From NCBI GenBank assembly GCA_052327205.1, contig JBMRGM010000043.1, forward strand, positions 31,682,001 to 31,746,000: a DNA stretch of 64,000 bases, written 5' to 3'. Position numbers and translations under genes: made by a program. The DNA is from Somniosus microcephalus (taxonomy: Eukaryota). This document shows, in pieces, positions 1,037-63,830 of the stretch (positions are counted from its first letter, which is position 1; every line of letters starts with the position of its first letter). The notes beneath the pieces are model-generated. The model saw nothing but the letters and a program-made list of their open reading frames with translations. It made no database searches and was not told the DNA's origin.

Positions 1037-1291
1037 CCCATGTCCCAGAAGTAGTCCTTAGCAATCCGAGCGATGGAATCGTGAAAGAAGGGGAGACATT
1101 TTACCTGCAGTGTCGATACAGAGGCATGAAAACATTGGCTTATTGGTATAAAGATGAGACTTATATTCATTTTAAATATATGTTCTTTGAAAGATATGCA
1201 GATAGTCGCAGTGGAGCGTCTTACCAGTGTTCAGTGCCGCTGCCTTGGTCCTCCTCTGAGAAGAGTAAACCTCTGGATTTAGTCACCATTG
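1037..1291 (+). CDS. Gene A Ig exon 1 (FcR D1-like)
   Basis: ctacag|CC CAT GTC...ATT G|gtaggt; 255 nt, phase 1-1; LQC..WYK..SYQC; paralog of 35841-36092. Confidence 0.88.
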
Positions 1292-2559
1292 GTAGGTAAA
1301 CTTCGACACCAATGATCATAGCTCAGTTTTAGTCGAGAAATGTGTCGCTTATAAAGGGGCCTCACAGTCAAATATAGTACAGGATATCAAGCACATGCAA
1401 TACTGGGATAAAATTGGACCACTGGGCAGAAGTGTATCTTCATCCCTCCTCCTAACAGGGGGACCTCTCGGTTTCCCCAGAGTTGAAATATATGCCGCTA
1501 TTTTGTGCGGTAGTATCAGCCAGTTTCACCTCCCATTTATATCACATTAACTTCAATTGAAATATCGCACAGAGTCTAAATCTACCCAAATTCTTACATG
1601 TTGTTAGGTCAATCAAATGTTATTTATTTCAAGAGAGACCTTAAACCGCTAATTGTGCATGGAACAGCGGCTCTCTAAAACAGCAGATACGAGAAAGCCA
1701 CCGTTAATATCTCCTAGAGTAATTTTAAGACTGTGGTGAAAGCTTAAATTCTATTTCCAAAGTTCAAACTACAAAATCTGTGATCTGCAAACTAGTTTAT
1801 ATTAATAATAATGACATCTGAGAATTGCTGTGTCGCCTTCTGGCTGCGTTGTGTCGCTGGTCTGATATGCAATGACTTCTCCATTTAAACATTACTTCAT
1901 CCTCTGCGAAGTAGGTTGTAGGGTGACCCATCACAGGTTTAAAATCCAACTTTGGTGGAAGCACGTAATGGGCTCTACTCTCTCCAACCCTGTTACAAAT
2001 CAAATGTAAAAGTCATAAAACCGACTGCTGTTTCGTATTCGCTCATTTGCCGCCAATGTGTATTGCAAATTTATACCGGAGTGGGAATAACTTTACCTTT
2101 CATCGCAGGGTGAAATAAACAGGCGAGGTCCAATCAATCGCCATGTTTTAGATTCAGGTGGAGTCGCATTTCTATTTACTTCAGTGTTAAATAAATCGAG
2201 AGTGGTTTGAAACTTATGGCTGCTCCATTACTGCCCTTTGGCCTCTTGGCGGTAAAAGTGAAAAGTAGCTCAAGTGTATCCTCCCGGCGCTCCCCTGGGA
2301 TCAGGATTGGTTGGAAGTGCATCTGCAGACCCGAGGCATGGTGAGAAGTGGAGTGTACATTTATCTTGTGTCTCTCAGAAAACAAATTATTATGAGGTGC
2401 AACGGATGCTTTTATCTAGGTAATAAGCAATGCTAGAAAAATTGTTGATAGGTGACTAACTAGGGGCGCTCCTTGAGCACTGCCACAAGTTTATTGTATG
2501 TGCAGTGCAAAAACCCTTTACATACATAAATGGGGTTCCCTTCCGCACACCTGGCGAAG

Positions 2560-2780
2560 TTACAGCGGAGGAGCGAAGGCAGGAAATTGCCCTGTGTTTC
2601 CACAAAAGGTAATGGGACAATGAGCAGCTAATTTGTTTGGTCTTGCTGGACGAACGAGCAATACCCCAGGACACTGGAACGACTTCTTCGTCTTGGCGTC
2701 GTTCAATGGGATTTTTAACTGATATCAGAAGCACCTGAACAGGTGAAAGCGGCCACGGTTTTAATATCTTGATTCCACAA
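2560..2780 (-). mobile_element. Degenerate Deu-domain SINE fragment
   Basis: Reverse-complement resemblance to the core of the SINEs at 24220 and 29309; boundaries approximate. Confidence 0.4.
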
Positions 2781-3107
2781 CATTTACAAATACCAGACGT
2801 TTATTTAGAGAGGGCTGGGCATCTGCCTGGCTGTTGAATCGATCCTCGCCATTGAACTTCGTTGATGAAACCTTGAAGGGCAATATGAGCAGTGATAGCT
2901 CAGCATTAGAAAGGGAACGGTCACTCTCTGAACCAATAAACATTAGTTTGGCTTTTCAGGTCTTAAAATTACTTTTAGTTACTGAGGTGATACCGATTGC
3001 TCTGGATATTGAGCTGCACTTTCAAGCCAATGTTTTTTAACATTGAAGAATGGTGCTTTAACATATTTTAATTTGTATTTCGTTCATATGTTTCACTTTT
3101 TTTGCAG

Positions 3108-3374
3108 CTTCTGATATGAATTTAACTCTGGAAGTGAATCCAACATCCGCACTGTCATGTGACAGTATTATCCTCAAATGTTTGATGCCTTCCTGGAAAT
3201 GGAGAGAAGGTTTTCCCTTCCTGTGGTATCGAGATAAACAGTTAATAGCAGAAACTGACGAATCTCAGTACACCATAGAAAACGCAAAAGAGTCAGATAC
3301 GGCACCATATCGGTGTGAACTCAAAATACGTTACAGGAAGTGGATCTCCCCGGATGTAACCATCACCATAAAAA
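3108..3374 (+). CDS. Gene A Ig exon 2 (D2a type)
   Basis: tttgcag|CT TCT GAT ATG...AAA A|gttggt; 267 nt; LKC..FLWYRD..DTAPYRC; paralog of 37090-37350. Confidence 0.88.
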
Positions 3375-3464
3375 GTTGGTCACTGCTTTTCTTTTTCATT
3401 TTCTTTATTTGATCTGGTAATGAGCTGTTGAAGGATGTGAAGTATTCTAAGAATCCTTGGCCTA

Positions 3465-3770
3465 TATATGACTGCACAACCACAGAAATGTGGTTGACTC
3501 TTAATCCCCTCTGAAATGGCCTGGCAAGCTACTAAGTTTTATCAAAGCACGAGAAAAAACTGTAAGATTAAAACTTGGAGGAACACCTGGCATTGAACTA
3601 GGCATCATATTCGGACACAGATAAGACACACAGTCAACCCTGCAAAGCCCTCCTCCCTAACATCTGGGGACTTCTGCAAAAATTGGGACAGCTGTCCCAC
3701 AGACCAGTCAAGCAATAGCCTGTCATAGTGATGATCACAGAATCATACCTTCCAACCAATGTGGTGGCTG
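3465..3770 (+). mobile_element. LINE-related fragment (5'/endonuclease-start region)
   Basis: aatgtggttgactcttaa..ctgaaatggcc also occurs near 60780; followed by an eroded endonuclease-like stretch. Confidence 0.5.
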
Positions 3771-4162
3771 GGTGGTGACAGAGTGATGTAACTGTGAATA
3801 TTTGCAGAATTCACAGTGATCATAGTAGATGTTGAGACACAGCAGGGAATAGCGAAAAGAGCAAAGTTCTATTGAAGGATTCATACTTGAATAAGTCTTG
3901 CACAGCGTGGAGTTCCTGTATCAGCAGAATATATTAAGCAGATTAAGTTCTCCGCAAACAAAGCAGCGAGTGCAAATCCATAACAATATAGTAATGCTGC
4001 CTACTGGAGTGTTCCACAATACAGCTGCTGGTTACCATTTAGTACAGTCGCACCTCGTGGTGGTTCTTGGTATATCCTTGCTCTTGTTATCAATAATCTC
4101 TGCTATTTGTTTAACTATATGAGATGAATTCTTACCTCCCAATCCATATTCTGTTTTCACCG

Positions 4163-4440
4163 AACTCTTCTCCAAACCTAAACTGAGGACTGAGCCTACA
4201 GTTAAAATATTTGAGGTAGATCAGTTAAAATTCATTTTTTTTATTGAAACAATGCTGTTCAATATTAGGCTTCAATACACATTTCACAAAAATGGCAAAG
4301 CTCTGCAGTTGAATTCATACATCAACTCTAAGCACATGGGGGCAGCTTCTTTGAAGGGCTCGGTGACTTAGCCTTGTTGAGCAAATGCTTTCTACCACCG
4401 TGATAACAACAGAGTGATGAGGTTTCCATTACGGTAGAAG
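4163..4440 (+). pseudogene. Dead D3a-type Ig exon inside gene A
   Basis: Homolog of 40236 and 46307, but acceptor cacag>caccg, first Cys TGT>TTT, and in-frame TAG/TGA near 4368-4380. Confidence 0.88.
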
Positions 4441-4995
4441 GTAAATAGAACCAGCTGTAATTACTGTTCATCTTTCATTTAAAGAATTCTTCAGGGGATT
4501 ATAGATAAATAAATATACGGGAGGGATCCAATGTGGAAAAAGATTTACTCCCAGCTTTATCACATAATAAATCAATTTTGGATGTGATCTGTTTAAATCA
4601 AAGCGCCACCTGGTTCTATATAAAATCCATACATTTACTGAAACCCACACTTGTAATAGCTGCAACGTTTGAAGACCAGTGTCCACTCCCAGTGGCTAAT
4701 ATTAGCTTCCTGCAATAGTGTCGAATGGGCGATACTGAATTTGCCTCCCATTATATGTCCCTCCCGTGTTTGCGTCGCATCATTATCATTGGACAGGAAC
4801 ATCGTGCGTGGTGTACAATTGGTGCAAGATTCGATACCATGCGTTTTACACCATGGATCCAAGGTCAAGTTACCTCCTCTGTGTCTGTCTGACTGAATCA
4901 GCAACGAGCAGAACCTGGTCAGGAACAGCACGGTGTTTAATCAGACAGTGCCTTACCACTTACTAGTCCCGGCAATCGTTGCTAGCTGAAATCTC

Positions 4996-5129
4996 GGTGC
5001 TAAAATTTAACTTGGAGAGTGCAGTAGATAATTGGCAGACAAGGAAATCGAATTTCACCTGTGTGTAGATAGTATGGCCAATGAGCTACTACCGGTTTTG
5101 CACCCCAGACAAACTTGAATTTCCACCCC
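4996..5129. mobile_element. Short MITE-like hairpin element (copies near 41058-41192 and 47139-47272)
   Basis: Terminal inverted repeats of type ggggtaaaatttaa ... ttgaattttcacccc. Confidence 0.5.
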
Positions 5130-5775
5130 TCCAATTTCAGTAGAGGGGGATGACGGGGTGGCAAAACGCCGGAGGCTATTGAAGGCTGAGCCCCTGATGT
5201 CCGGCCTCTCGATTGCGTTCAGTTAGAATCTGCCAATCATAACTCTATCTTTACATTTTAAAAGGAGCAGGCAATCAGAACACCAAGTGGGTGTTATCGA
5301 TCCTGTGTCATCAGTGCATTTTCAAAGAATTGCATTGTCCATAGCTGAGCGTTTAACATGAATGTCCTAAAATGTGAAGGTGCTGCAACAATGACCAATG
5401 AGGTTTCAGTATTTAAGACTTGGGCATAAAGCATCGCCTGGGCGGAGAGCAGAGTCCAAAATCTGAGTGGGGGGAATGGGGTGGGCTGAAGAGGGATAAT
5501 CTCACAGGACCCGCAGGGTGTTTCCTCCATTCATTTTAACGGAAGGGTTAACTTCTCCCCAAATCTAGCCACGAGAGTATGTTCAGATGTCGGTGTTCCA
5601 AAGTGCATCTTCCTATAAACAGAGTGCAACCAAGGATTATTGAACGGCTCTTTCTTTGAACCGCTGTCAGCATTTCATTGCTCTGATCATTAACTTGTGT
5701 TATCCAAACAAATACTTTCATAAATCTTTGAGAGATGCTTCAGCTGGTAAATCTATTTTTTACTCTATTTTATAG

Positions 5776-6054
5776 AGCTCTTCTCCAAACCTACATTGAG
5801 GGCTGATTCTGAAGCTCAAATATTTGAGGGCCAACAGTTAAATCTCGCATGTTTGGTTGAAATATTTTGCTCCAATTCGTCTTTGAGATATGTATTTTTC
5901 AAAAATGAACAAGCTCTCAATTCAGCGGCAGACCACAACTATTACATCAAGGAGACATCACTGCTGGACGATTCGGGGATTTACCAGTGTGAAGCAAGTA
6001 CTTTGAACAGTGAGGTGAAGAAACTGAGTAATCAGGTTTCTGTTTCAGTCAGAC
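5776..6054 (+). CDS. Gene A Ig exon 3 (FcgRI/FCRL D3-like, D3b type)
   Basis: tatag|AG CTC TTC TCC AAA CCT...AGA C|gtgagt; 279 nt; ELFSKP..EG..LAC..YVFFKN..DDSGIYQCEA..KKLS. Confidence 0.9.
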
Positions 6055-6933
6055 GTGAGTACAATTTACTGTTAGAATTTAGCATCTTTCATCCACAAAA
6101 TTCCCAGCAGGTTCGCACACGGGGATTGATCCGTGAAGTAAGGGCCTTACCTATATGTTCAACATGCACTGAATACATAAATAACTAAATTATTGTCGCA
6201 TAGACAACAGGGGAAAGGAAATAATAGCATGTTTATACAACACATTCGTGAGGCCACAGATACTGTGTCCAATGTCCTGCCTTCCATTTTAAAGAGAACA
6301 GTAAAATCACAGAAAACGGGCAGCGTTGATTCACCAGATGACGCCAGGGATGGAAAACTTTATTCACCAGAATAGACTTGAGCTACTGGCACGAACACTA
6401 CCGGAGTAGCCATGGCTAAGAGTTATTTCATTACTGTTTATTACATGATAAGACCGAGATAGGGTGATAAGGGAATGGTATTTACTCTGATTGCGAAGAC
6501 AGGAAGGAGGGATCATTGATGTATAATTATCAATATAAGCGGGAGGATAGCTTAGAAGAACGTTCTTTATTCGAGGATTGCTGGAACAAAGAATGATTGG
6601 CCAAGTGGAGCAGTGGAGTTAGATGCAATTGCATTTAGGTAGATAGTGTTTATGGTACTGGAATAGTGCAGAGTTAGTAGGAATCAGTACCAGGCCAGAG
6701 ATAGTAGGGTGGCCACTAGTGGATTGCAATAGGAATCATTGCAGTTCCAGAATCAGTTTTTCCTCTATTAATTCCACTGACTGCTGAAGTAGGAGAGGGG
6801 CACGGGCGCCCAAGATTGGAGTGGTAACCTAAATGACGAGGCTCTTTATTTTGATGAGAGCCCTATTTCACTTTGAAAGTAATACTACAAATTCCACAAA
6901 AGCAATGTAATTGACAAATGGTTATATTTACAG

Positions 6934-7221
6934 GAATCCCAGTGTCCAAACCGGAACTGGCAATCAGCCCTGGTAAAGAGTTACTGGAAGGCGACACAGC
7001 ATCGTTAACCTGCTCAGTGTTCAACGGTTCTACCCCGATTACCTACATATTCTACAAAGGCCCAAATAAAGAACTCTTCCGAGAGGAGTCCAACCTAACC
7101 GAAATTACTTACCAAATCGGTAAAGTCAACCAAAGCACCCAAGGGGATTATATTTGTGGTGTTTCAAACGAAGCGACCAGACGTCCTCTACACAGCGATT
7201 TTGTTACGGTTGCAGTGCTAG
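6934..7221 (+). CDS. Gene A Ig exon 4 (FCRL D5-like, membrane-proximal)
   Basis: tacag|GA ATC CCA GTG...CTA G|gtgagt; 288 nt; PVSKPEL..LTCSVFNGSTPITYIFYK..GDYICGVSN. Confidence 0.9.
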
Positions 7222-7729
7222 GTGAGTTATTATAAATACCTCTGAGGCAGAACGAAACAAGTGACTCAGTGAGAACAGTCCGGGAATCACTGCTTTTGCC
7301 AATAGCTTGGACGTTGTAACATCTTCTTTGACATTCTTCTGTGTGAAGTGAGGCACTGCGCCATTTACATTAAACAGGTGAATGCCTAAAAAGAACAAGA
7401 ATGTCATCTGATTGCATCAAGTATTGGTCTACAAACTGCAACTGTTAGTTGTAGATTTAAAACGGCTGATCAGTCTGTTTAATTGACAAATTGAGAGAAG
7501 TTATACGGAGAGGTTAATGACGACTCAAATCTTAATACCATCGGCAGTAATTTTTGGGCTATAAATTTTAGAACATCATCTCTTAACCGTAGCTGCTAAT
7601 ACTTTTGTATTTGTATATGGGATTGGGCGTCGCTGGCAACATTTGCTTTAATTGGCCATCCCTAATTGCCCTTGAGAAGGTAGTGGTGAGCCACCTTCTT
7701 GAACCGCTGCAGTCCACGTGGTGATCATC

Positions 7730-8197
7730 CAAATTCAGTACCCTGTCCCTGCTTTCTACCCACATCCCTTGATCCTGTTAGCCTTAAGCAACATATCTAA
7801 CTCCTTCTTGAAAATAATTAATGAATTGGCCTCAACTTCCTTTTGTGGTAGAGAATTCCACAGGTTCTCCACTCTCTGGGTGAAGAAATTCCTCCTCATC
7901 TCTGTTCTAAATGGCTTACCCCTTATCCTTAGACTGTGACCCCTGGTTCTGGACTCCCCGACTATCGGGAACATCCTTCCTGCATCTAATCTGTCGAGTC
8001 CTTTTAGAATTTTATACGTTTTATTGAGATCCCCTCTCATTCTTCAAAACTCCAGTGAATATAAGCCCAATTGACCCAATCACTCCTCATACGGCATTCC
8101 TGTCATCCCAGGTATCAGTCCAGTTAATCAGCGCTGTACTCCCTCCATGGCGAGAACATCCTTCCTCAGATAAGGAGAACATCCTTCCTCAGATAAG
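7730..8197 (-). mobile_element. 5'-truncated CR1 LINE
   Basis: ORF 7756..8040 (MRGDL..RGHSLRIRGKPF..NLWNSLP); 23-nt tandem duplication at the truncation end. Confidence 0.92.
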
Positions 8198-8200
8198 TTA

Positions 8201-8387
8201 CTTGAGGGCCAACAGTTAAAACTCGCCTGTTTGGTTGAAATATTTCGCTCCAGTTCAGCGGCAGACCACAACTATTACATTAAGGAAACATCACGGCCTG
8301 ACGATTCGGGGACTTACCTTGGTAAAGCAACTACTTTGCACAGCGAGGTGAAGAAACTGAACAATCAGGTTTCAGTTTCAGTCAGAC
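8201..8387 (+). pseudogene. Truncated duplicate of the D3b exon
   Basis: Matches 5822-6054 with no acceptor or 5' part, an internal deletion, and the second Cys lost (GTYLGKAT); donor and about 120 nt of downstream intron retained. Confidence 0.85.
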
Positions 8388-8580: not shown

Positions 8581-8682
8581 TGCAGATTCACACAACCGCG
8601 ATCAGAGCCTCAGTTTTTACACTTTTTCTTGTTGCTGCCCTGATTGCACTGGTACTCGTCAATCGTCCCAACAAGAAACAAG
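8581..8682 (+). CDS. Gene A transmembrane exon with Arg (VQIHTTAIRASVFTLFLVAALIALVLVNRPNKKQ)
   Basis: ttccag|TG CAG ATT...CAA G|gtgagt; 102 nt, phase 1-1; AGA at 8604-8606; paralog of 50884-50985. Not in the ORF track. Confidence 0.87.
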
Positions 8683-9206: not shown

Positions 9207-9237
9207 AAAATTCTTCAAGAATTTCACAATCGTTTGG
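9207..9237 (+). CDS. Gene A cytoplasmic mini-exon 1 (ENSSRISQSFG)
   Basis: atccag|...GG|gtaagt; 31 nt, same length and phase as 51513-51543. Confidence 0.8.
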
Positions 9238-12572: not shown

Positions 12573-12658
12573 GGAGGCAACTAGAAACAGACCTCCAAGT
12601 GAAGAGAATTCTGCAGACAATTCCGAGTCTGCAGGTGTGCGATCAGCTCAAAGCACCG
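12573..12658 (+). CDS. Gene A cytoplasmic exon 2 (EATRNRPPSEENSADNSESAGVRSAQST)
   Basis: cttag|G GAG...ACC G|gtaagt; phase 2-1; paralog of 53573-53664 with Ser in place of Tyr. Confidence 0.8.
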
Positions 12659-12924
12659 GTAAGTTCAACCTGATCAGCATGTGATGAACCGTAGATTGTT
12701 TGGGGTAACATTTCCATCGGAAGTTCTCTCCAATATCGTTATCACTTCGGCAGAAGTTAGGCTACAACTCCAGAGAGATCACCCTTTCTGCAAGTTTTCC
12801 ACGGAAATTCCACCAACGTTACGACGAGACATTGGGAAAAACCACATAGAGTTTCTATTTCCTTCTCTGCGTACACTCAGCACAATCTAGCGTTAGGTTT
12901 TCTTCTTCACTGTCTGGATATTGA

Positions 12925-13620
12925 CCTATTATATCTCTAACATTATCTCAAAGTCTATGTCAATGGCTGGTCTACATCTATATCTGTGTCTATGTCTATG
13001 TCTCTCTCTATGTCTATTCCTATCTCGAACTCTATGTTGATCTCTATGTCCACCTCCATCAATCAGTCTTTACCTATCTCCATATCTATGTCTAGCTCTA
13101 TCTTTATATCTCTACTTCTTTATCCACCTCCATCTCTCTATCTCTACGTATATCCCAGTCTCTCGCAATCTATCATCATGCCTCACTATATTTCTTTACA
13201 TTTATCTTGCTTTCCATCGCTCCATCTCTCTCTCTATCTATCTATTTGTATCTATCTCTATTGATCACTCTGTCTTGCTGGTTACAACTCTATCTCTCTC
13301 TGTCTATGTCCATTTAGATATCGATCTCTAGCTCCCCTATCTCTACGTCTATGCCAGACTCTTTCTATATGTTTATGCACCTCTATTTGTATCAAATAAT
13401 TTATTAGTATCTCTATCACTGGCTCTAGTTATTTGTCTACCAGTAACTCCAAATTTATGTCGGTCTCAATCATCTCTCTGTCTCTGTGCCTATCAATATC
13501 TATTTCGATTTATATCCCTCTTTCTCTATATTCTATCTCTATCTTTATCTCTATCACTATCACTATCTCTGTCTCTATCTCTACCTCTGTCTAAAATCTC
13601 TACTCCCTATCTCTTTCTCT
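12925..13620. repeat. Degenerate (TCTA/TATCTC)n low-complexity tract
   Basis: Pyrimidine-rich imperfect microsatellite; a shorter counterpart lies at about 55280-55400. Confidence 0.85.
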
Positions 13621-13648
13621 AAACCGTCATTAATCTCTGATATTACAG

Positions 13649-13689
13649 TCATACTCTTATGGACACCTGTTGCTTGCGAAACTGTGTAA
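13649..13689 (+). CDS. Candidate terminal exon of gene A (VILLWTPVACETV*)
   Basis: ttacag| acceptor, phase compatible with the previous exon, TAA at 13687-13689, AATAAA about 30 nt downstream. Confidence 0.5.
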
Positions 13690-13720
13690 ATCCTGAGTGA
13701 AATATGATGGCTCTCTACAG

Positions 13721-13726
13721 AATAAA
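13721..13726 (+). promoter_or_regulatory. Candidate poly(A) signal of gene A
   Basis: AATAAA just after the candidate stop, followed by a TGTG/T-rich stretch. Confidence 0.45.
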
Positions 13727-14687
13727 ATTGTGCCTTATGTAAAGAATCAAAGTTAAGTTATACTAATATTGCAGTTAATTTACTTGGATACTCTTAAGAG
13801 CCGAGATGGATTTCCTTCTCCACCACTCGGTCGAACGAAATAAAAGTGATCTTACTGTCCTTAGATATCTTTTTCTTAATCTTTATATTCGATCTGATAA
13901 TTAATTCCTTGTGAAAACATATCAAACGAGTAACAGAAATGGACTCAAAATGTGCAATACAATAGAGAATTTTGCATTGATAGAATGTTAACTTCCTTTC
14001 ATGGAAAGTTTGAATCTTCTGACTGTAACGAGGCCCATGTGACATGAATCATCAGCAACTGGAAGGCAATCGAGAGCCTGAGCACCAAGAAGATAAATAC
14101 AGATGTTCGGAGTCTACAGGAATCTACAGAAAATTCTGAAGGCAATAGTTGAAGCAAGCATGTTATTCCTACAAGTGACTAAAGAACGATATTACTGGGG
14201 AGCACCTCAGTTCGTGATGTTCATTCAAAGCAAAAACTGTCAATCGTCACGATTCAACCACGATTTGGATTTTTCTTCACAAGAGCCTCTATGTACAGAA
14301 CCTGATTCATTTCATTGCTGTATACAGCTGTTGATGCCTCATCACAGAGAATAAGGGGCCCAAGTTGAATAACTTCAGCATCTGTTTCTGGATGTAGATG
14401 CCATGAGGCCAATGATCTAATGAAACTTTTGATAAACTAGCTTCCTGACTGTGCCTGAAATATTTTCATTCTGACCTAAATGACTTTCGATCGCTTGGAC
14501 ATTTCGCTTGTATACGCCAGATTAATAACTGCTTACCTCCCAGATGTTTCGGGACATCTTCTGATTGATTGATTTCGCCTGGAGTTTCTGTATTGGTACT
14601 AATTGTCTGCTTATAAACCTGGATGTATCATTTCAGCTACTGAAGAATTGGATTAGGTTCTGGACAGTTTCATGTGTAAGCCTTATT

Positions 14688-17600: not shown

Positions 17601-18035
17601 GTATTAGTGATTCCTTCCTTTATTAACATAGCCACCTCACATCCCCTTCCTTCCTGCCTGTCCTTCCTGATTGTTAAATACCCTGGTATGTTTAATTCCC
17701 AGTCATGGTCAACCTGCAGCCATGTTTCTCTAATGGCCACAAGATCATACCCATATGTCGTTATTTGTGCCGTTAACTCGTCCATTGCGTTACGAATGCT
17801 ACGTGCATTCAGATAAAGAACTTTCAAATATGTTTTATATACTTAGTCCTTGCTTTTTCCCCTTTTACTACTTTACATTTTACTCCATACCTTCTGTCCC
17901 TTCCTGACACGCTCTGATTTTTAATTCCCCTACTGTTACCTAGGTCTATGACCTTCTCCGTTGTCATTTTTATTATTTGCTCTCTAGAAACCTCCCCCCC
18001 ACCACTTATTAGTTTAAAGCCCTCTCTACAGCCCT
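14688..18035 (-). mobile_element. Long degenerate CR1 LINE (endonuclease, RT, composite 3' tails)
   Basis: Minus-strand ORFs: YLNARSIRN (APE start), DHNMVEF, KSPGPDGLHPRVL, YRPVS, YLDFQKAIDKVPH, GPQLFTIYINDL, HLEYC; frameshifts and internal deletions. Confidence 0.95.
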
Positions 18036-47773: not shown

Positions 47774-48052
47774 AGCTCTTCTCCGAACCTACTTTGCGGG
47801 CTGATTCTGGAGCTCAATTATTTGAGGGCCAACAGATAAAACTCGCCTGTTTGGTAGAAATATTTCGATCCAATTCTTCCTTGAGACTCGTATTTTACAA
47901 AGATGGACAACCTCTCAATTCAGCGGCAGACCACAGCTATTACATCAGGGAAGCATCTCGGCCGGAAGATTCGGGGATTTACCGGTGTGAAGCAACTACT
48001 TTGAACCGTGAGGTGAAGAAACTGAGTAATCAGGTTTCAGTTTCAGTCAGAC
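47774..48052 (+). CDS. Gene B Ig exon 8 (D3b duplicate)
   Basis: tatag|AG CTC TTC...AGA C|gtgagt; 279 nt; EDSGIYRCEA. Confidence 0.9.
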
Positions 48053-48742
48053 GTGAGTACAATTTAAGATAATTGTTTATCACTTTTAAAGAGAACAGGA
48101 AAATCATAGAGAACGAGTAACGCTGATTCAACAGATGATGCCAGGGAATGGAAATTTTATTCAACAGGATAGACTTGAGCCACTGGGACTAACACGGGTT
48201 TGCCATGCCTAAGAGTTATTTCATCAGTGCTTAGTACATGCCAATTGCGAGATAGGGCGATTAGGGAAAGCTATTCCCTCTGTTTGCGAAGACAGGAAGG
48301 AGGATCAGTAAAGTATAATTATCACTAAAAGCGAGAGGGTAGCGCTTACGTGAACATTTTATGTGTAGCTGACTGCTGGAAAGTAGAATTATTTGTCAGG
48401 TGGAACGGTGAAGTTAGATACCACTGCATTTAGGTAGAGTAATGTTTATGGTATTGGAATAGTGCAGAGTTCCTGCTTTTCACTAGCAGAGTCAGGAGGA
48501 ATAAGGACCAGGCCAACATAGTAGGGTGGCCATAAGTGGATTGCAGTAGGAATCATTGTCGTTCCAGGATCAGGCTTTCCTCTATTAATTCCACCTACTG
48601 CTAAAGTAGGAGAGGGAGACGGGCGCCCAATATTGGTGTGGTAACCTATATGTCGAGCCTTCTTTATTATGATGAGAACCCTATTTCACTTTGAAAGTAA
48701 TGCTACAAATTCTGCAAAAGCAATGTAATTAACAATTTGCAG

Positions 48743-49030
48743 GAACCCCAGTGTCAAAACCGGAACTGGCAATCAGCCCTGGTAAAGAGTTAATAGAAGG
48801 AGACACAGCGTCGTTAACCTGCTCAGTGTTCAACGGTTCTACCCCGATTACTTACATTTTCTACAAAGACCCGGATAAAGAACTCTTCCGTGAGGAGTCC
48901 AACCTAACCGAAATTAATTACCAAATCAGTGAAATCAACCAAAGCACCCAAGGGGATTATAGTTGCGGTGTTTCAAACAAAGCGACAGGACGTCCTCTGC
49001 AAAGCGATGTTGTTACAGTTTCAGTGATAG
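48743..49030 (+). CDS. Gene B Ig exon 9 (D5-like)
   Basis: ttgcag|GA ACC CCA...ATA G|gtgagt; 288 nt; about 15 aa differences from 6934-7221. Confidence 0.9.
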
Positions 49031-50883: not shown

Positions 50884-50985
50884 CACAAAGTCACACAACC
50901 GCGATCACAGCAGCCGTTCTTCCACTTTTTCTGATCGCTACCCTGATTGCACTGGGTTCCTTCAAACTTCGGAAAAAGAAACAAG
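50884..50985 (+). CDS. Gene B transmembrane exon, uncharged (QSHTTAITAAVLPLFLIATLIALGSFKLRKKKQ)
   Basis: ttccag|CA CAA AGT...CAA G|gtgagc; 102 nt; basic stop-transfer segment. Confidence 0.88.
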
Positions 50986-51512: not shown

Positions 51513-51543
51513 ACAATTCCTCAAGTGTTTCACAGCCGCAGGG
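51513..51543 (+). CDS. Gene B cytoplasmic mini-exon 1 (DNSSSVSQPQG)
   Basis: atccag|...GG|gtaagt; 31 nt. Confidence 0.82.
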
Positions 51544-51844
51544 GTAAGTCTGCAAAATATTTGTATTTGTCAGTCATAACTATATCCATGATTATACTGA
51601 AAGGGTGAACATCGTCTTTGGCATGGTTGCAAATCAGGCGGCATTGCATCTACCACCATTTATACACCCCCGAATTGAACTGAATATTGGATGGACATTG
51701 ATGGGCGGTAGGGGCACTTCAGTCAGTTATTCCTCCACGCCCAATTCGAATTCTCCCCGTAGTATCTGATATAGCTCCGCTGGAGACAGTTACAATTTTT
51801 AAGAGCTAAATATTACCTTATTTTTGTTTTTGCTTTTTAGTTTA

Positions 51845-53465
51845 TCAACAGGCCAGTCAGCCTAACATAGTTATTTGGAACCATTATTAGGGAAAAAATA
51901 AACTTTTATTTGGAAATCATGGTTTAATCAAGGAGATCCAACATGGATTTGTTGAAGGCAAATCGTGTCTGACAAACTCGATTGAATTCTTTGATGAGGT
52001 AACAGAAACTTTTGATCAAGGTAGTGAAGTAAATGTTGTATATTATAGACTTTCGGAAGGCAGTCGACCGAGGCTTGTTAAAAAATATGTAAACTCATGG
52101 GATTAAGGGAACGTGGCGGTATGGATAGGGAATTAGCTCGGTGACAGGATGCAGAGTGTGGTGGTGGATGGATGTTTCTCAGACTGGGAGGCGGTTTTGC
52201 AGTTCTGTTCCCCAAGGGTCAGTTTGGGGTCCATAACTCTTTGCAATTGCAATGAGCGACCGAGATTAAGGTGTAGGGGGCAACATTGTAAACTTGCAGA
52301 TGACACATAACTTGGCCAGGTAGTAGATAGTGATGAGGATACTTGTAGTCTTCAGGGTAACATAGACAGGAATGGTTAAATGGGCAGAAGCATGGCACTT
52401 GGAGTTCAACCCTGAGAACTGTGAAGTGATGTACTTCTGGAGAACTAATCTGGAAAGACAATATACAATAAAGGACTCGATTTTGAAAATGGTGGATGAG
52501 CAGAGATGACTTGATGTGCTTATAAACAAATTCTTAAATATGGCAGGACAAGTTGCTAAGTTGGTTAAAGCAGCATAGGGAACACTTGTATTTTTTAAAT
52601 AGCGGCTTAGAATATAAAAGCAAAGAGAACATGCTAGAACTTTTGAAATCAGTAGTTAGACCTCAGCTGGACAATTCTAGGCAGCAACTTGCCAAGGCTC
52701 CTTCGACAGCACCTCCGAAACCCGCTATCTCTTCCACCTAGAAGGACAAGGCGCATCAGAACACCACCTCCGAGTTCCCCTCCAAGTCAAACACCATCCT
52801 GCCTTAGAAGAATATCGCCGCTCCTTAATCGTCGCTTGGGCCAATATCCTGGAACTCCCTCCCTAACAGCACTGTGGGAGTACCTTCACCACACGGACAG
52901 CAGCGGTTCAAGAAGGCAGCTAACCACCACCTTCTCAAGGGCAATTAGCGATGGGAAGTATATGATGGCGTTGTCAGCGATGCCCACATCCCAAATACGA
53001 ATAAAATCACACTTCAGGAAACATGTAAGAGGCAAAGAAAGCATACAGAGGATGTTTACAGGATATTACCAGGGATGAGAGACTTTATTTACGAGGAGTG
53101 GTTGGAAAATTAGGAGGTGGAAGAGAGAAGGTTAAGGGGTGAGTCAATAGTGGTTTTCAAGAGGACGAGAGGTTTTGTTAGAGTAGATAGAGAAACAATA
53201 TTCCCTCTTGATCAATAACTAGAGTTCGTAGATTTAACATCATTGTAAAAAGATCTTGAGGGGAGATGTGGAGAACTATTTTTCATTCAGAGAGTTGTCG
53301 GTATCTAGAACACTCCACCTGAAAATTTGGTGGAAGCTATTTCCATCAATAACTTTAGCAGTTAATTGGACGGATCTTTGAGGATGAGGACCTTACAGGG
53401 CTGCAGACAAAAGCCAGGGATATGGGACTAAGCAGGATTGCTCCTTCAAGGAGTTCTATGTTCTC
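51845..53465 (+). mobile_element. Old CR1 RT region with nested LINE tail
   Basis: Eroded QHGFVEGKSCLTNSIEFFDEVT and VVRPQL motifs; insert at 52680-53005. Confidence 0.82.
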
Positions 53466-53572
53466 TGTAGCTACTGCTGAATGTTTCTATGATGCTGTAA
53501 CATTTCGTTGAAAGTGAACTTTGAGTTGTTGATGCATGAATCCTTAATTTCTAAGAATATTTTCGTGCAAAG

Positions 53573-53664
53573 GGTGACAACTGAAAATAGATCTGTACCT
53601 CCGAGTGAAGAAACATCTGCGAGCAATTTCGAGTATGCAGTTGGGGGATCAGCCCCAAATACTG
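53573..53664 (+). CDS. Gene B cytoplasmic exon 2 (VTTENRSVPPSEETSASNFEYAVGGSAPNT)
   Basis: caaag|G GTG...ACT G|gtaagc; phase 2-1; paralog of 12573-12658. Confidence 0.8.
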
Positions 53665-54647: not shown

Positions 54648-54704
54648 CTTCTAGTTCTGATCAGGTAACCTACAGTTTAGTACAAGGCACGAAGCCCATG
54701 GAAG
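54648..54704 (+). CDS. Gene B ITIM exon 1 (ASSSDQVTYSLVQGTKPME)
   Basis: Strong polypyrimidine tract, ctacag|...GAA G|gtaagg; 57 nt, phase 1-1; VTYSLV fits (I/V/L/S)xYxx(L/V). Confidence 0.85.
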
Positions 54705-55450: not shown

Positions 55451-55516
55451 ATATTACCGGAAATGCTGCCAATTTAGTGTATTCGGAGGTCACGATCAGA
55501 AAGTCACGAGAATGTG
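55451..55516 (+). CDS. Gene B ITIM exon 2 (DITGNAANLVYSEVTIRKSREC)
   Basis: T-rich tract, tttag|AT ATT...TGT G|gtaaat; 66 nt, phase 1-1; LVYSEV. Confidence 0.85.
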
Positions 55517-55799: not shown

Positions 55800-58700
55800 T
55801 AAAAATGGTATAAAATAAATAAAGGTTATTTATCTGAATGCACACAGCATTCGTAACAAGATAGATGAGTTGGTGGCATGAAGAGAAATAAATGTGTGTG
55901 ATCTGAAAGCCATTACAGAGACGGGGTTGCAAGGTGACCAAGGCTGGGAACTGAATATTCAGGGGTATTTGACATTTCGGAAGAATAGGCAGAAAGCAAA
56001 AGGAGTTGGGTAGCTCTTTTAATAAAGGATGATATCAGTGCAGTGACGAGAAATGAAATTGCCTCAGGAAATCAAGATGTAGATATAGTTTAAACGGAGA
56101 TAAGAAATAATAAGTGAAATAAGTCACTAGAGGGAGCAATCTATAGGCCTCGTAAAAGTACCTACACTGTAGGACAGAGTATAAATCTTGAAATAAGATT
56201 GGCTTGTAAGAAATGTACTGTGATAATCATGGGCAATTTTAATCTTTATATAGATGGAACAAATCGAATTGACAAGGTTAGCCTTGAGGACGAGTTCATA
56301 GAATGGATTCAGGATGGTTTGCTAGAACAATACGTTGTGGAATCAACCAGGGAGAAGGCTATTTTAGACCTGGCAATATGTAATGAGGCAGGATTAATTC
56401 ATGATCTCATGGTAAAGGATTCTCTAGGGAACAGTGATCATAGCATGATGAATTTCTAATTCAGTTTGAGGGTGAGAAACTTGGGTCTGAAACTAGTGTC
56501 CTAAACTTAAATAAAGGCAGTTACAAAGGTATGAAGGCAGAGTTGGCTAACGTAGACTGGGAAAATAGATTAATGAGTAAGACGGTAGAAAATCAGTGAC
56601 AGATATTTAAGGATATTTTTCGTAACTCTCAGCAAAGATTTATTCCAGCGTCAAAGACAGACTCTACGAGAAGGATGAACATCTGTGGCTAACTAAAGAA
56701 GTTAAAGACGGTATCAAATTGAAAGAAAAGGCAGATAATGTTGCAAAAATTAGTGGTAGGTCAGAGGATTGGGAGATTTTTGGAATTCGGCAAAGGATGA
56801 ATAAAAAACTAATAAAGAGGAAGAAATAGATTATGAAAGGAAACGAGCACAAAATATAAAGGAACAGACAGTAAGAGCTTCTACATGTATATAAACGGGA
56901 AGAGAATAGCTAAAGTAAACGTTGGTCACTTAGAGGATGGGACTGGGGAATTAATAATGGGAAATAGGGAAATGGCAGAGACTTTGAATACACTAAAAGC
57001 ATCACAATAATAATTGGTAATCAAGGGGCTATGTTCACAATATATATCAGTAATTTAGGTGAGGGTACCAAATGTAATATTTCCAAGTTTGCTGACGTCA
57101 CGAAACCAGGTGGGATTGTGAGTTGTGAGGAGGATGCAAAGAGGCTTCAAGGTGATTTGGAGAAGTTGAGTGAATGGGCAAATACATGGCAGATGCAGTA
57201 TAACGTGGATAAATGTGAGGTTATCCATTTCGGTACAAAAAACAGAAAGGCTGAATATTATTTAAATGTTGATAGATTGGGAAATGCTGAATTACAGAAG
57301 GACCTGGCCGTCCCTGTACACCAGTCACTGAAAGCAAACATGGAGGTGCAGCAAGCAGTTAGGATGGCAAATTATATGTTGGCCTCCATTGCAAGATGAC
57401 TTAAGTAGAGGAAAAATGAAACCTTACTACATTATACGTGGCCTTGGTGAGACCTTGTGCATTTTTGGTCTCCTCACCTAAGAAAGGATAAACTTGCCAC
57501 AGAGGGAGTGCAGCGAATGTTCACCAGTCTGATTCCTGGGAAAGCAGGACTGTCGGATGAGCAGAGATTTGGTCGACTAGGCCTGTATTCACTAGAGTTT
57601 AGAAGAATGAGAGGGGATCTCATTGAAACGTATAAAATTCTGACAGTGCTAGACAGACGGGATGCAGGGAGGATGTTTCCCTGGCTGGGCGGGTGGGGTC
57701 TAGAATGATGGGTCACAGTCTCAGGATGCGGGGTAGGACATTTAGGACTGAGATGAGGAGAAATTTCTTCACTCAGAGGGTGGTGAACCTATGTAATTCT
57801 CTACCACAGATGGCTGTCGAGGCCAAGTAACTGAATATATTTTTAGAAGGAGATAGCTAGATTTCCAGACACAAAAGGCATCAAGGGGTATGAGTAGAGA
57901 GCGCGAATATGATATTGAAATAGATAATCAGCCATGATCACTTGAATGGCGAGCAGGCTCAAAGGGATGAATGGCCTACTCCTGCTACTAATTTTCAATT
58001 CACTATGTTTTCTAAATCAATGACTATCACTAGAGAAAAACTGCGAGGCAAATTAATGAGACTAAAGACTGACAATTGCCCTGGACCTGATGGCCTACTT
58101 TCAAGGGTCTTAAAAGAAGAGGCTCCAGAGATATTGGATGCGTTGTTTGTAATCGACCAAAATTCCATGGATTCTGGCGAGCTCCCAGTGCCTTGGAGAA
58201 CCGCAAATGAAGCACTTCTATTAAAGAAAGGAGGGAGGCAAAAAGCAGGAAACTATAGGCCAGTTAGCCTAACATCTGTCATTGGGAAAATGCGGGTATC
58301 CATTATTAAGGAAGTCATAGCAGGACATTTAGAAAATCCTAATGCAAACAAGCAGAGTCAACATGGTTTTATGGAAGGGAAATTGTGCTTGACAAATTTA
58401 CCAGAGTTCTTTGAGGATGTAACGAGCAGGGTGGATAAAGGGGGACCATTAGATGTGGTGTATTTGAATTTCCAGAAGGCATTCGATAAGTTGCCACATA
58501 AAAGGTTACTGCACAAGATAAGAGCTCATGGGGTTGGGAGTAATATATTAGCATGGATAGTGGATAGGATAACTAACAGAAAAATAAAAAGCCGGGATAA
58601 ATGGGTCATTTTCCAGTTGGCAAACTTTAACTAGTGGGGTGCCACAAGAATCAGTGCTGGGGCCTCAACTATTTACACTCTATAGTAATGACCGGGCCAA

Positions 58701-59600
58701 ATTTGCTGATGATACAAAGATAGGTGGGAAACAAATTGTGAGGAGTACACAATTAGTTTGCAAATATAGATATGTTAAGTAAGTGGGCAAAAATATCGCA
58801 GATGAAGATTAATGTGGGAAAATGTGAGATTATCAACTTTGGTAAGAAAATTAAAACAACAAATTATTATTTAAATGGAGGGAGACTATTTAATCCTGCC
58901 ATACAGAGGGATCTGGGTGTCCTCGTATTTGAAACACAAAAGGTTAGCATTCAGGTACAGAAAGTAATTAGGAAGGCAAATGGAATGTTGTCCTTTATTG
59001 CCAGGGGGTGGAGCATTAAAGTAGGGAAATCTTGCTACAACTGGAGTACTGCATGCAGTTTTGGTCTCCTTTTTTCAGGCGGGATATACCTGCATTGGAG
59101 ATAGTTCAGAGAGGGTTCACTAGGCTAATTCCTGAGATGAAGCGATTGTCTTCTGAAGAAACGTTGAGCAGGATGGGCCCATACACATTGGAGTTTAGAA
59201 GAATGAGAGGTGATCCTATTGAAACATATAAGATTCTGAGGGAGCCTGACAGGGTAGATTTAGGGAGGATGTTTCCCCTCGTGGGGTAATCTAGAAGTAG
59301 GGGGCACAGTCTCAGGATAAGGGATCGCCCATTTAAAATGGCGATGAGGAGTAATTTCTTCTCTGAGGTTCGTGAATCTTTGGAATTCTCTACCCCAGTG
59401 AGCTGTGGAGGCGGAGTCATTGATTGTATTCAAGGCAGAGATAGACATATATGTGAGCTACAGGGGAGTGAAGGTTTTTGAGGAGCGGATGGGAAAGTGG
59501 CGTTGAGGGCAATATCAGATGAGACATGATCTTATTGAATGGTGGTGCAGGTTCGAGGGTCCGAATGGCCTACTCTTGCTCCTATTGCTTATGTTTCTTA
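55800..59600 (+). mobile_element. Composite CR1 LINE: endonuclease-RT copy with another CR1 3' end nested at about 57025-58010
   Basis: YLNAHSIRN-like start; ORFs 56199, 57031, 57457, 57942, 58772 and 59032 carry CR1 motifs; the RT C-terminus occurs twice. Confidence 0.92.
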
Positions 59601-59890: not shown

Positions 59891-59922
59891 GTAATGATGG
59901 TGGCGCCTCAGGAAGGAAACAG
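59891..59922 (+). CDS. Gene B cytoplasmic mini-exon (GNDGGASGRKQ)
   Basis: ttacag|GT AAT...CAG|gtaagt; 32 nt, phase 1-0; consensus splice sites. Confidence 0.7.
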
Positions 59923-60512: not shown

Positions 60513-60830
60513 TGGGTGCAGTAGCTTAGTGGTGACATAACTGGACTAATAATCCAGAGGCTTCGACTAATGATCCGAAGAAATGAATTCAAATCCCACC
60601 ACCGGCAGCTGGGGAATGTAAACTCAGTTAAATAAATAAATCTGGGATAAAAAGCTGATAACAGTAAAGGCGACCACGACACTCTCAGGTTGTTGTAAAA
60701 CCCAACTAATGTCCTCCAGGAAGGAAATTGGCTGTCCTTAGCTGGTCTACCCTATATGTGACTCCAGACCCACTGCCAATGTGGTTGACAGTTAACTGCC
60801 CCTGAAATGGCCGAGCAAGCGGCGCAATTG
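60513..60830 (+). mobile_element. tRNA-headed SINE (third family)
   Basis: A-box-like tagcttagtgg, B-box-like ttcaaatccc, tail shared with 3465-3530. Confidence 0.6.
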
Positions 60831-62514
60831 CAACAAACCATTACGAAAAGATGTTACCCCTATGGTAACACCTTCCCCTCCAAGTCACACACCATCCTGA
60901 CTTGGAAGTACATTGCCATTCCTTCATCGTCGCTGGGTCAAACTCCTGGAACTCCCTGTCTAACAGCACTGTGGGATAACCTTCACCACACAGATGCAGC
61001 ATTCCAAGAAGGCGGCTCACCACCACCTTCTCCAAGGCAATTAGGGAGGAGCAATAAATGCGGGCCTTGCCAGTGATGCCCACATCCTGTGAATGAATAA
61101 AAAATTATCATCCCTTGTTTAAATTTAGTCGTTGGTTTATTCATTGCTCGTTTCATTCCAACCATTTTCTTTAATTTTTTTGCTATAAAATAAATTCAGA
61201 GAGGAATCATAAGTGTATTTTTGTGTGACCTCAGCCAGTTAATTGTCAGTAGTTTTGAACACACTGAAAATCGGGCGATATTGAATTGGCCATCCATTAT
61301 CCATCTCTCCCGACTTCCCTTCCACTGAAATAACCACTGATTCTACCTCGCCAGCTGTGCACCACCGCCTGAGACCAATTTCAGCTTCCTGTTCATTAAT
61401 TCCAGGCTAACAAGAATGGTCCCAACGACTATTGTGTCACATACGCCATAGTTAACCGTGCAAACACTGAAGCTAGTTTGGAAGGAGGCCCAATGGAAGA
61501 AGGCTGTGTCTACGAAAACTTTCCACGGAAATAAGAGCAAAGCAGGATTAACAAGCATAGAAACAACAAAGAAAACAGAATGGAGGCAACGGCAATCAAC
61601 TTGTGCTCTGCGCAAATTACCTGCCCTCAGGGACTTTAGTCTGAAGGCAGGTTAGGCCATTGTTCCTTGTGCAAGGCCTTCTAGGCACAGAGTTCGTGCC
61701 CGCCAGCCATTCAATTTATACGTATGTTTTACTCTGACAGGACTTTATATCTCTGCAGCTTATATTTTGCAGAGGGCTCCTACCTCTGGCTTTGGTGGTG
61801 CTACCTGCAAGACTATACTGTTTGTAAGACCATTACATCAGAATGTATACCCATTTTATCCATGTTAAAATGCAATTAACTAACGGGCGTGTTGGGGCTC
61901 TTGCTCTAATATTCTGCCAGTGTTCTTGAATGCTTCCGTAACTGCAGAGGGAGATCAGTAGATCTTCTGGAGAAATTATGCAAATGGCCGAAGGTGGGAG
62001 AAAACCTGTAGCAATTTCCAGGGTCAATTTTTTCTTTAATAATGTTGTAAAATGAATGCTATCAAATTGACCGCTTGTATAACCCCACGGCCTATTTACT
62101 TTTCCATTATTTTGAATAAAGGAAAAGCGGGCATGATGTACAATGGGAGCCTTGATTGATATCATACATTTCCCATCCTCGCCCAAATTCCAATCTATCT
62201 GAATGCCACAAATAAACTGTGTATAGAGTAACTGGTTACTGCTTAATCTTCATCACCTTGGGGTTTAGCATTCGAGGGGCAGAGCGCAGGATAATACATC
62301 TGGCGGGGAGGATGGCTTGTTACTTGCAAAACCCATCGAATTTTGCTTTCTTTCAGCCTTTAAACATCAGGCCATTCCGTTACCGGTATCCCTCTTGCCA
62401 AATCTTCCATCCACATTCTGGCGGTAAAGTCTGAACTCTACCTCACCATATATTAGTGCCAAATGCATAAGACATAGCGTTTTGTATTGCTACATGATAT
62501 GATGGGATTTTAAA

Positions 62515-63725
62515 AATTACACAGAATTTAAAGCACAGTAACCGGCCATTCTGACCAACAGGTCTGTGCTTGTGTTTATGATGCACACGAGACTCTTCTC
62601 ACCTTCTTTCGTCTAATCCTATCAATATCTCCTTTAATTCCTTTCTCTCATATGTACTTATCTAGATTACCCTTTAAGATATCTGTGTTGTTAGCCTCCA
62701 CCACCTAAACTTCTGGAATTTCTATAAGTGGACTCCTCTTCTCTATGCCTACCCTATCAAACCCCTTCATAATTTAAAATAACTCTACTCGTTCTCCCCT
62801 CAGACCTCTGTTTTCTACAGAAAAGAATCCCGATCTATTAGTTATATCTTGAGAGTTAAGACGTTTCATTTCTGGTACAATGCTCCTCAATACGTTTTAC
62901 CGTCTCTTTTTCCTCTATGCATTTTGTAATATATAACAATAAAGAACATAAGAAGTAGGAGCAGGAGTAGACCATATGGAGCCTCGAGGCTGCTCTTGCA
63001 TTCAATAAGATCATGGCTGATCTTCAAACTTAACTGCACTTGTTTGCACTAGAATCCAAAAATCAATCTTATCTCAGCCTTGAATGTACTGAACGATTCT
63101 GCATGCACAGCTAATTGGGAAAGAGAATTCCAAAGAGTAACTAACCTCTGAGTGAAGACATTTCTCCTCATCGCTGACCCATATCTTGAGACTATGCCCC
63201 CTAGTTATAGACTCTCCAGCCAGGGGATACAGCCTGTCAGCATATAACCTGCAAATCCCCCTCTGAATCTTATGTTTCAATGAGCTCACCCCTCATTCTT
63301 CTAAAATCCAGTGCTTATGGTCTCAATCTACTCAATCTCTCCTCATCGGACAACCCTCTCATCCCGGGAATCAATCTAGTGGAGCTGCATTGAACCGCCT
63401 CTAAAATGGAGACCACAAGTGTACACAATACTTTAATGTGGCCCAACTACGTTTCTATACAAATTTAACATGGCTTCTCTGCTTTTCAATGCATTTCCTC
63501 TAGAAATGCACTCCAATACTTTGGTAGCATTTTTCGGGCCTTGTCAAATTGCGTTACTAATTTTAATGATTTGTGAATGTGTACCCCTGGATACCTTTGC
63601 TCCTCTGCCACATTTAGATTCTTATTTTGCGAGGATAAAGTGCTTCCTCATTCCTTCTACCAAAATTCACAAACTAACTATGTTAAAATTCGCTTGCCAT
63701 GTAGATGCCCATTCATCATGATTAT
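62515..63725 (-). mobile_element. Nested degenerate CR1 3' fragments
   Basis: aagaacataagaagtaggagcaggagtag tail at about 62942; ORF 63074..63289 RGHSLKI. Confidence 0.82.
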
Positions 63726-63818
63726 TACCGTCTTTTTATATTTTATCGTGCTTCGACAATAATTTTTTATCGCTGAATAATAAATATAATGTTAAGAAAT
63801 ATTCCCTGTTGTTCACAG

Positions 63819-63830
63819 ATTGAGACATAA
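63819..63830 (+). CDS. Candidate last coding micro-exon of gene B (IET*)
   Basis: ttcacag|ATT GAG ACA TAA GT|gtaagt; phase 0 matches the preceding exon. Confidence 0.45.
   Translation: MET

Follow-up and report, generated by a model that had tools for sequence, protein, structure and literature searches.

FCRL-type receptor genes in the shark Somniosus microcephalus form a tandem array with predicted inhibitory and likely activating members

We describe a family of immunoglobulin (Ig)-domain receptors of the FCRL type in the cartilaginous fish Somniosus microcephalus. Two of its genes, A and B, lie in a 64,000-nucleotide (nt) stretch of the genome (assembly GCA_052327205.1, contig JBMRGM010000043.1, positions 31,682,001–31,746,000, forward strand), referred to here as ‘the window’. 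Both belong to a tandem array, and on balance we favor the reading that this array combines two kinds of receptor. Members with an uncharged, threonine-bearing transmembrane (TM) segment (‘Thr-type’) and a tail with three ITIMs (immunoreceptor tyrosine-based inhibitory motifs) are predicted to be inhibitory, and this half of the system we regard as secure on sequence grounds. Members with an arginine in the TM segment (‘Arg-type’) and a Tyr-free tail, such as A, are likely to be activating. Underpinning the reading are the anatomy of the genes, the existence of two TM classes, the occurrence of ITIM exons behind the Thr type only, the presence elsewhere in the genome of an FcRγ-like gene, and an ectodomain that A shares at 99% identity with a neighboring inhibitory gene, C.

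A first-pass annotation, made from the letters of the window, had proposed that A and B are tandem, homologous paralogs forming an activating/inhibitory pair. Rebuilt from splice sites and reading frame, every used exon of both genes has AG/GT boundaries and an open frame, and the paired Arg-TM/ITIM-tail family, with D2 and D3 domains of the FCRL type, is upheld; the family is far larger than envisaged, and A and B are two of its members rather than a lone pair. The contig that contains the window (C43) is 44 Mb long, in a genome of 6.45 Gb, and carries at least 21 Arg-type and at least 25 Thr-type TM exons, hence at least 46 genes; these counts are lower bounds, 40/46 candidates having been scored per search with the TM exons of A and B as queries. 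The copies lie at 21.5, 25.3–25.5 and 30.3–31.9 Mb, and the two types largely alternate. Arg is present at all 21 Arg-type loci: 11 have a TM exon identical to that of A (‘A-type’ copies), six further sequences have the codon AGA, and the rest were translated. The terminal exons with ITIM and YENxP motifs follow the other type. Among the 27 mapped, 25 have a Thr-type TM exon found in these searches no more than 30 kb ahead of them, and none has any of the Arg-type TM exons ahead of it within that distance. The nearest TM exon found for the remaining two is ~50 kb off, probably because their own was not scored.

Gene A has four open Ig exons and one dead D3-type exon, and its parts are as follows.

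1.3–4.1 kb upstream of the window: leader exons S1 and S2
1037–1291, forward strand: Ig exon D1a, distal, the most variable among siblings
3108–3374, forward strand: Ig exon D1b, whose counterpart in B (B2) weakly matches FcR D1
4163–4440, forward strand: dead D3-type exon (acceptor CG, two stops, a frameshift); gene C has the same dead exon
5776–6054, forward strand: Ig exon of the FcR/FCRL D3 type
6934–7221, forward strand: Ig exon of the D5/PECAM type, its protein identical to that of gene C (95/95)
7620–8170: retroelement fragment, inside which the 99% identity between A and gene C stops, at 7724
8186–8386, forward strand: partial dead D3-type exon ahead of the Arg TM, found in all 11 A-type copies
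8581–8682, forward strand: TM exon with Arg (AGA, against ACA in the Thr type), identical in 11 copies
9207–9237, forward strand: tail exon C1
12573–12658, forward strand: tail exon C2, in which Ser replaces the Tyr of B in 11/11 A-type copies
13649–13689, forward strand: likely terminal exon, Tyr-free, probably a decayed remnant of the ITIM exon C4 of B

As the first-pass annotation had it, the Arg stands near the N-terminal end of the TM segment (TAIRASVF), and the tail exons (9207–9237, 12573–12658 and 13649 to the stop) encode no Tyr. The terminal exon was placed by position and by global alignment with C4 (local alignment was not significant). Tyr-motif exons further downstream, which would undo this picture, were sought in 12659–21900, where no homologue of C3–C6 of B scored above shuffled sequence, while C2, the positive control in the same search, reached 85 where shuffles peaked at 36. 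Tyr motifs occur by chance at three of 22 acceptor-like sites behind A, within low-complexity or retroelement DNA, and hidden ITIM exons were rejected. All 11 A-type copies have intact splice sites at TM and C1 together with Tyr-free C2 and terminal exons, and they have lost the C2 Tyr that older Arg copies retain. The dead D3 exon does not mark A as a pseudogene, because the intact inhibitory gene C has it as well.

Gene B encodes ~999 residues, with two leader exons (31 and 30 nt), nine exons for Ig domains, one for an uncharged TM segment and six for the tail. Its parts are listed here together with the unattached leader exons that precede it.

30580–34569, forward strand: leader exons S1 (30580–30610, 31 coding nt) and S2 (34540–34569, 30 nt); RefSeq homologues have the same leader
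35841–49030, forward strand: nine Ig exons, namely D1a (35841), D1b (37090), D2 (38932), D3 (40236), D3 (41841), D2 (43192), D3 (46307), D3 (47774) and D5 (48743)
50884–50985, forward strand: uncharged, Thr-type TM exon (TAITAAVL)
51513–53664, forward strand: tail exons C1 (51513–51543) and C2 (53573–53664), C2 with one non-consensus Tyr
54648–54704, forward strand: C3, with the ITIM VTYSLV
55451–55516, forward strand: C4, with the ITIM LVYSEV
59891–59922, forward strand: C5
61406–61534, forward strand: terminal exon C6, with a third ITIM, VTYAIV, then YENF and the stop
21909–25202, forward strand: orphan leader exons S1 (21909–21939) and S2 (25173–25202), no Ig exon behind
27526–27556, forward strand: extra copy of S1

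The D3 domain at 41841 has lost its second Cys. The uncharged TM described in the first-pass annotation stands; the two ITIMs it counted become three, followed by the C-terminal YENF, and its end for the gene, near 63830, gives way to 61406–61534. That exon is open in 27/27 genomic copies, and RefSeq homologues from Mustelus and Heptranchias end in the same way; the ending at 63819–63830 (‘IET-stop’), which is without such support, is very probably wrong. Between 20700 and 35100 the window holds triplicated leader/promoter modules (three S1, two S2) with a deletion junction at ~25718, possibly alternative first exons for B.

B was also proposed as the partner of A, a role that better fits gene C, the next gene downstream, just beyond the window (C43:31757864–31777950), with a Thr TM and the full ITIM tail. 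Positions 1–7724 of the window match gene C at 99.0% identity over 7.7 kb. The match ends within the retroelement, past which A continues with the partial dead D3 exon and then the Arg TM. Domain by domain, A and C have 78/84, 86/88, 87/92 and 95/95 residues identical, and only 20/33 in the TM; the corresponding domains of A and B have 42/84, 44/88, 72/92 and 80/95. Most of the differences between A and C are in the distal D1a; for this exon, the A-type copy at 31.07 Mb encodes the same protein as gene C. In five of the 10 other A-type copies the Arg-TM/tail cassette is attached to a different ectodomain, and in three of the 10 to exon-deleted versions. On this evidence, the anatomy of A and C is that of paired receptors made by recombination. 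Gene C further contains an additional D6 exon, and its C3 exon is duplicated, with Tyr changed to His in one of the two copies. In the variable patch of D1a at 1131–1136, contigs of two other runs have different letters, which points to allelic or paralogue variation.

The Arg of A occupies the third position of a 21-residue TM stretch that is uncharged in B, and its codon, AGA, differs from the ACA of the Thr type by one base. Examination of 32 shark and ray sequences, isoforms included, left 24 that could be aligned (eight have no TM match); at this site Thr prevails among the 24, and neither Arg nor Lys occurs. Thr is therefore ancestral and Arg derived, and the Arg of A looks like an independent Thr-to-Arg change. 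Homologues in Carcharodon and Cetorhinus have a Lys just ahead of the TM core and retain long ITIM tails.

Two TM exons of the zeta/gamma family occur in the genome, on contigs C40 and C14. The C40 exon (a PF11628 match) is 92 nt long, lies 0.34 Mb from NDUFS2 and is followed 10.5 kb downstream by a YESL exon (span C40:10596641–10607176); the exon with the first ITAM Tyr of this FcRγ-like gene was not located. From sequence and from exon lengths, we take the C40 gene to be FCER1G and the C14 exon to belong to CD247. A predicted complex of the A TM with two FcRγ-like TM chains scored 0.07, which weighs neither way. On the whole, activation through FcRγ is somewhat the likelier role for A-type genes.

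By domains and tail, the family is of the FCRL type as judged from sequence comparison. The best Protein Data Bank (PDB) matches of the D3 exon are FCRL5 D3, FcγRI D3 and FCRLA; those of the D2 exon (B3) are FcγRI and FcεRI D2 (E 6e-5); and the top match of D5 is FCRL5 D4–D9, with LILRB as a weak match. D1b leans weakly toward FcγRI/III, although its pairwise scores against PECAM D1 and LITR-like domains are equal or better, and D1a has no clear match. Neither LILR nor KIR chains are among the matches listed for the D1, D2 and D3 exons (the best 60 for D1). A and B have seven D2 and D3 domains between them, and in pairwise scoring all of these are best with tetrapod FCRL. Searches with the ectodomains return ~30 shark and ray proteins first, and then alligator, frog and marsupial FCRL; conversely, 50 of the 52 scored matches of alligator FCRL3 in the genome fall in this cluster, and none on C40 or C41 in a strict first look. 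Shark D2 joins FCRL D2 with support of 91 in a quick tree and 85/75 in a careful one, and D6 joins alligator FCRL (95, quick tree). Of 185 domains, 129 entered the quick tree and 46 the careful one; absent from the former were CEACAM-like, NCAM2, Polypterus and bird sets, two sets from fish, two from sharks and one PECAM. The multi-exon tail with ITIMs and a terminal YEN motif is an FCRL feature, and the B tail aligns with that of alligator FCRL at z=6.8 (lion 5.6; marsupial FCRL3 0.8; six PECAM1 tails −0.7 to 4.1).

We do not file these genes as FCRL proper, because neither the leader rule nor the 1q23 linkage was found. The two leader exons are of 31 and 30 nt, where the 30/21 rule calls for a second exon of 21 nt. 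The FCER1G-like gene and NDUFS2 are on C40, PRCC on C41 and the array on C43 (SLAMF8 and DUSP23 were not searched for); FCER1G, NDUFS2 and PRCC are presumably all at 1q23 in human. Of the Xenopus XFL genes, only a fraction obey the leader rule (PMC2413239).

The array is linked instead, if loosely, to two landmarks of the leukocyte receptor complex (LRC). In mammals the LRC is interrupted by two blocks, TTYH1 and the pair NDUFA3–PRPF31 (PMC6557307), and with three markers tested both were found on C43, at distances of 1.2–14 Mb: NDUFA3 (16.22 Mb) adjoins PRPF31 (16.29 Mb), and a Tweety gene lies at 26.9–27.1 Mb, between sub-clusters of the array. One exon of the Tweety gene prefers TTYH1 (4e-11) to TTYH2 (1.2) and another favors TTYH2; because TTYH2 and TTYH3 are clearly accounted for by the copies on C21 and C11, we identify the C43 gene as TTYH1. 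Its last Tweety-matching exons are present twice, at 27.02 and 27.08 Mb (a partial duplication), and a long, retroelement pol-like frame lies beside it. The 90 kb around TTYH1 are repeat-rich, with no further marker gene among the output listed. Retroelement fragments, which we take to be CR1/LINE-like, also fill several introns in the window (1–725, 15270–17850, 45123–46214 and 55800–59600).

At the distal end of the array (C43:31.898 Mb) is an exon whose top PDB matches are LILRB2 and LILRB1 (E 4e-5), and, in the ESM Atlas, a sibling of it is similar to clusters of KIR3DX1, IGSF1 and A1BG. Close copies make up 53 of 150 scored matches and all lie at C43 23.7–42.5 Mb, and weaker relatives occur on C39, C40, C41 and elsewhere. 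The six copies translated all lack the second Cys, and no partner exon, TM included, was found in 21 kb around one of them. These exons are a lead rather than a gene model, and could represent either an LRC-type family of sharks or an exon carried by a repeat. A divergent Ig gene type occurs at C43:25.61–25.66 Mb (minus strand) and ~14 kb upstream of the Arg TM exons at 25.30 and 30.30 Mb. It has D2-, D3- and D5-like exons and repeated PVSCP exons, 23–43% identical to window-type domains, and scores highly with alligator FCRL3.

We propose that Thr-type members inhibit by recruiting SHP-1/2 to their three ITIMs, and that Arg-type, Tyr-free members such as A would activate through FcRγ. The Arg type would have arisen from an inhibitory gene by one Thr-to-Arg change and the loss of the ITIM exons, and unequal crossing-over or conversion may keep regrafting the Arg-TM/short-tail cassette onto new ectodomains. 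Activating copies would then be short-lived, as has been proposed for activating KIR. Each pair might use its variable distal D1 to recognize a single ligand, with opposite outputs, candidates being class I molecules of the MHC (major histocompatibility complex), Ig or a pathogen decoy.

Several observations weigh against the activating half of this proposal. The module shown to bind FcRγ in LILRA, FcαRI, GPVI, NKp46 and XFL is NxxR (PMC2413239, PMC6557307). The first-pass annotation had likened A to such receptors, and the comparison holds for the N-terminal TM Arg and the short, Tyr-free tail, whereas the Arg of A stands in the context TxxR. Arg-type exons have TxxR or similar, and NTIR, with Asn three places before the Arg, is found only in one damaged locus (31.83 Mb). 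FcRγ coupling thus cannot be borrowed by homology: A resembles the FcRγ-coupled receptors of the LRC type and by the NxxR feature is no member of them, and its Arg could lie at the membrane surface. All 10 of the older Arg-type loci examined either are damaged, with exons that are broken or splice sites that are missing or non-canonical, or have no Ig exon in the stretch examined, so conservation of the Arg may reflect descent alone; the locus at 31.83 Mb, though damaged, could encode a one-domain receptor. RNA mapping to the junctions of A, suggested at the outset as a check, did not bear the gene out: in two runs of unstated tissue, of which 24% and 31% were read, depth was zero on D1a, TM, C1 and C2, and no spliced joint was seen. 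One run gave 18 reads at 3353 (D1b), carrying the variant of gene C and three A-type siblings and not that of A, together with thin cover of D3; a search of runs listed no RNA run containing gene A. We treat this as weak negative evidence on expression of A. Among the annotated homologues of other sharks, which lean to long-tailed forms, no Arg-type protein was found with ectodomain queries, the only ones used for this purpose (TM-only searches were not made). In D1a, finally, A and C differ by six nonsynonymous and no synonymous codon changes, too few for significance and suggestive only.

Much of this would be expected if only the Thr/ITIM genes signal, the Arg types being non-signaling decoys or decaying duplicates within segmental duplications and their Arg a neutral juxtamembrane change; the resemblance of the terminal exon of A to a decayed C4 fits as well. 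We nevertheless consider that account rather unlikely. The 11 A-type copies have the splice sites and frames of TM, C1 and C2 preserved and the C2 Tyr gone, and the cassette is found on several open ectodomains, including near-exact copies of that of an inhibitory gene. An FcRγ-like adaptor gene is present, and the two silent RNA runs are of unstated tissue. The family might alternatively be an expanded PECAM1/MILR1-like group, adhesive or inhibitory, and not FCRL. Two observations tell against our FCRL assignment here. Both D5 domains, which the first-pass annotation had grouped with D3 as FCRL-like, score best with ray and shark PECAM D4 (155–160 against 110–116), and in the careful tree, which left D3 and D5 unresolved, shark D3 is not separated from PECAM D3/D4 (p-AU 0.43). 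Some homologues are named ‘PECAM-like’ in RefSeq, and LVYSEV is similar to what we take to be the TVYSEV of PECAM1. The per-domain trees called for at the outset place D2, and not D3, with FCRL, in a set that did not include MILR1. Against such a group, distinct chondrichthyan PECAM1-like proteins exist; they group with bony-vertebrate PECAM D1 (98/97) and have the six-domain architecture, with PECAM D1/D2, that the array genes lack. The D2 and D3 domains uniformly prefer FCRL in pairwise scores, no PECAM1 chain is among the PDB matches for the D2, D3 and D5 exons, and the tail and D6 group with alligator FCRL (again in a comparison without MILR1). The Tweety gene on C43 is, moreover, TTYH1, and TTYH2, presumably the Tweety gene at 17q25, is on C21. 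We judge a PECAM1/MILR1-like origin improbable. Least credible of all is that the copy number is an assembly artefact inflating a small pair, as 11 TM exons and 11 terminal exons, each set 100% identical, at ~70-kb spacing might suggest. D1a sequence, exon content and even whole ectodomain type vary among the copies, some of which are inverted; there are at least 14 distinct TM sequences; and other sharks, too, have several paralogues on one contig. The presence of one cassette on differing ectodomains likewise argues against an artefact.

Our paired Arg/Thr reading can be set beside several known systems. The XFL family of Xenopus (PMC2413239) is similarly large and expanded, with FcR-type D1, D2 and D3, a two-exon leader, domain shuffling, and two TM classes, one charged near its N-terminus and one uncharged. 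It differs in its TM1, which has NxxR and is homologous to that of LILRA and GPVI, where the shark TM has TxxR derived from an uncharged TM; in its 30/21-nt rather than 31/30-nt leader; and in its linkage to SLAMF8, IGSF9 and DUSP23 rather than TTYH1. Tetrapod FCRL2/3/5 (alligator, marsupial and lion) share domains of the D2, D3 and D6 types and the tail order V/LVYSxV, VTYA, YEN, and the best matches of alligator FCRL3 in the shark genome are this array. Relative to them, the array lies off the FCER1G/NDUFS2 and PRCC contigs, has a 30-nt S2 and a D5 nearer PECAM, and includes paired Arg forms and about 50 copies. The LRC receptors (LILRA/B, KIR and CHIR) have the TTYH1, NDUFA3 and PRPF31 neighborhood and, as PMC6557307 cites for KIR, activating forms derived from inhibitory ones via a charged TM residue; the shark ectodomains are of the FcR type, with no LILR or KIR chain among the matches listed for D1, D2 and D3, and there is no NxxR. 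Teleost LITRs are also paired and expanded, with FcR-like distal domains, but lack D3, D4 and D5 (PMC2413239), where the shark genes have D3 and D5; LITR-like domains (three of these proteins so labeled by us) stay apart from the shark domains in both trees. Skate MDIRs are a multigene activating/inhibitory family already known in a cartilaginous fish (PMC3031540); their domains are V-type and CD300/pIgR-like, with no relation to the C2, FcR-type domains of the array.

Direct homologues exist in RefSeq as shark and ray models whose leader, domains and six-exon tail are those of the array genes, under the names ‘Fc receptor-like 2/3/5’ and ‘PECAM-like’; the names are automated, and all the models retrieved are of the Thr/uncharged type. 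In the accessible parts of the literature, bamboo shark B cells are reported to express fcrl3, fcrl5 and fcgr1a-like, by name only and with no pairing or synteny (PMC11372145). Absence of FCRL and FcRγ from cartilaginous fish is stated in Akula 2014 (PMC4016189) and in a 2017 review (PMC5742104), and the former also found none of the LRC-type C2 genes. FCRL is likewise described as lacking in sharks by a June 2026 review (PMC13337447), which asks how their antibody-driven phagocytosis works, and PMC4536121 and PMC8302630 add no shark receptor data. We found no account of this shark family, its pairing or its LRC position, though earlier work on fish LRC- or FcR-like regions could mention shark genes. 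What is already known, then, is the FCRL naming of shark homologues in RefSeq; the pairing and the LRC linkage are new as far as we have found.

Contrary to the published statements of absence, this genome has a paired family of the FCRL type, an FcRγ-like gene and LILR-like exons. Their presence would move the receptor system back to the jawed-vertebrate ancestor, and the array genes are testable candidates for shark receptors of Ig or MHC. With ectodomains nearly alike and opposite predicted outputs, the twins A and C are a natural pair, suited to testing the origin of activating receptors. The position of FcR-type genes around TTYH1 is directly relevant, too, to the old debate on whether the FcR and KIR/LILR families share an origin. 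Quite tentatively, the shark chromosome may preserve an ancestral LRC, with FcR-type paired receptors and LILR-type exons around TTYH1; FcR/FCRL genes would have been born there, in the earliest jawed vertebrates, and moved to the 1q23 region in bony vertebrates, and sharks would have re-invented FcRγ coupling by a single Thr-to-Arg change.

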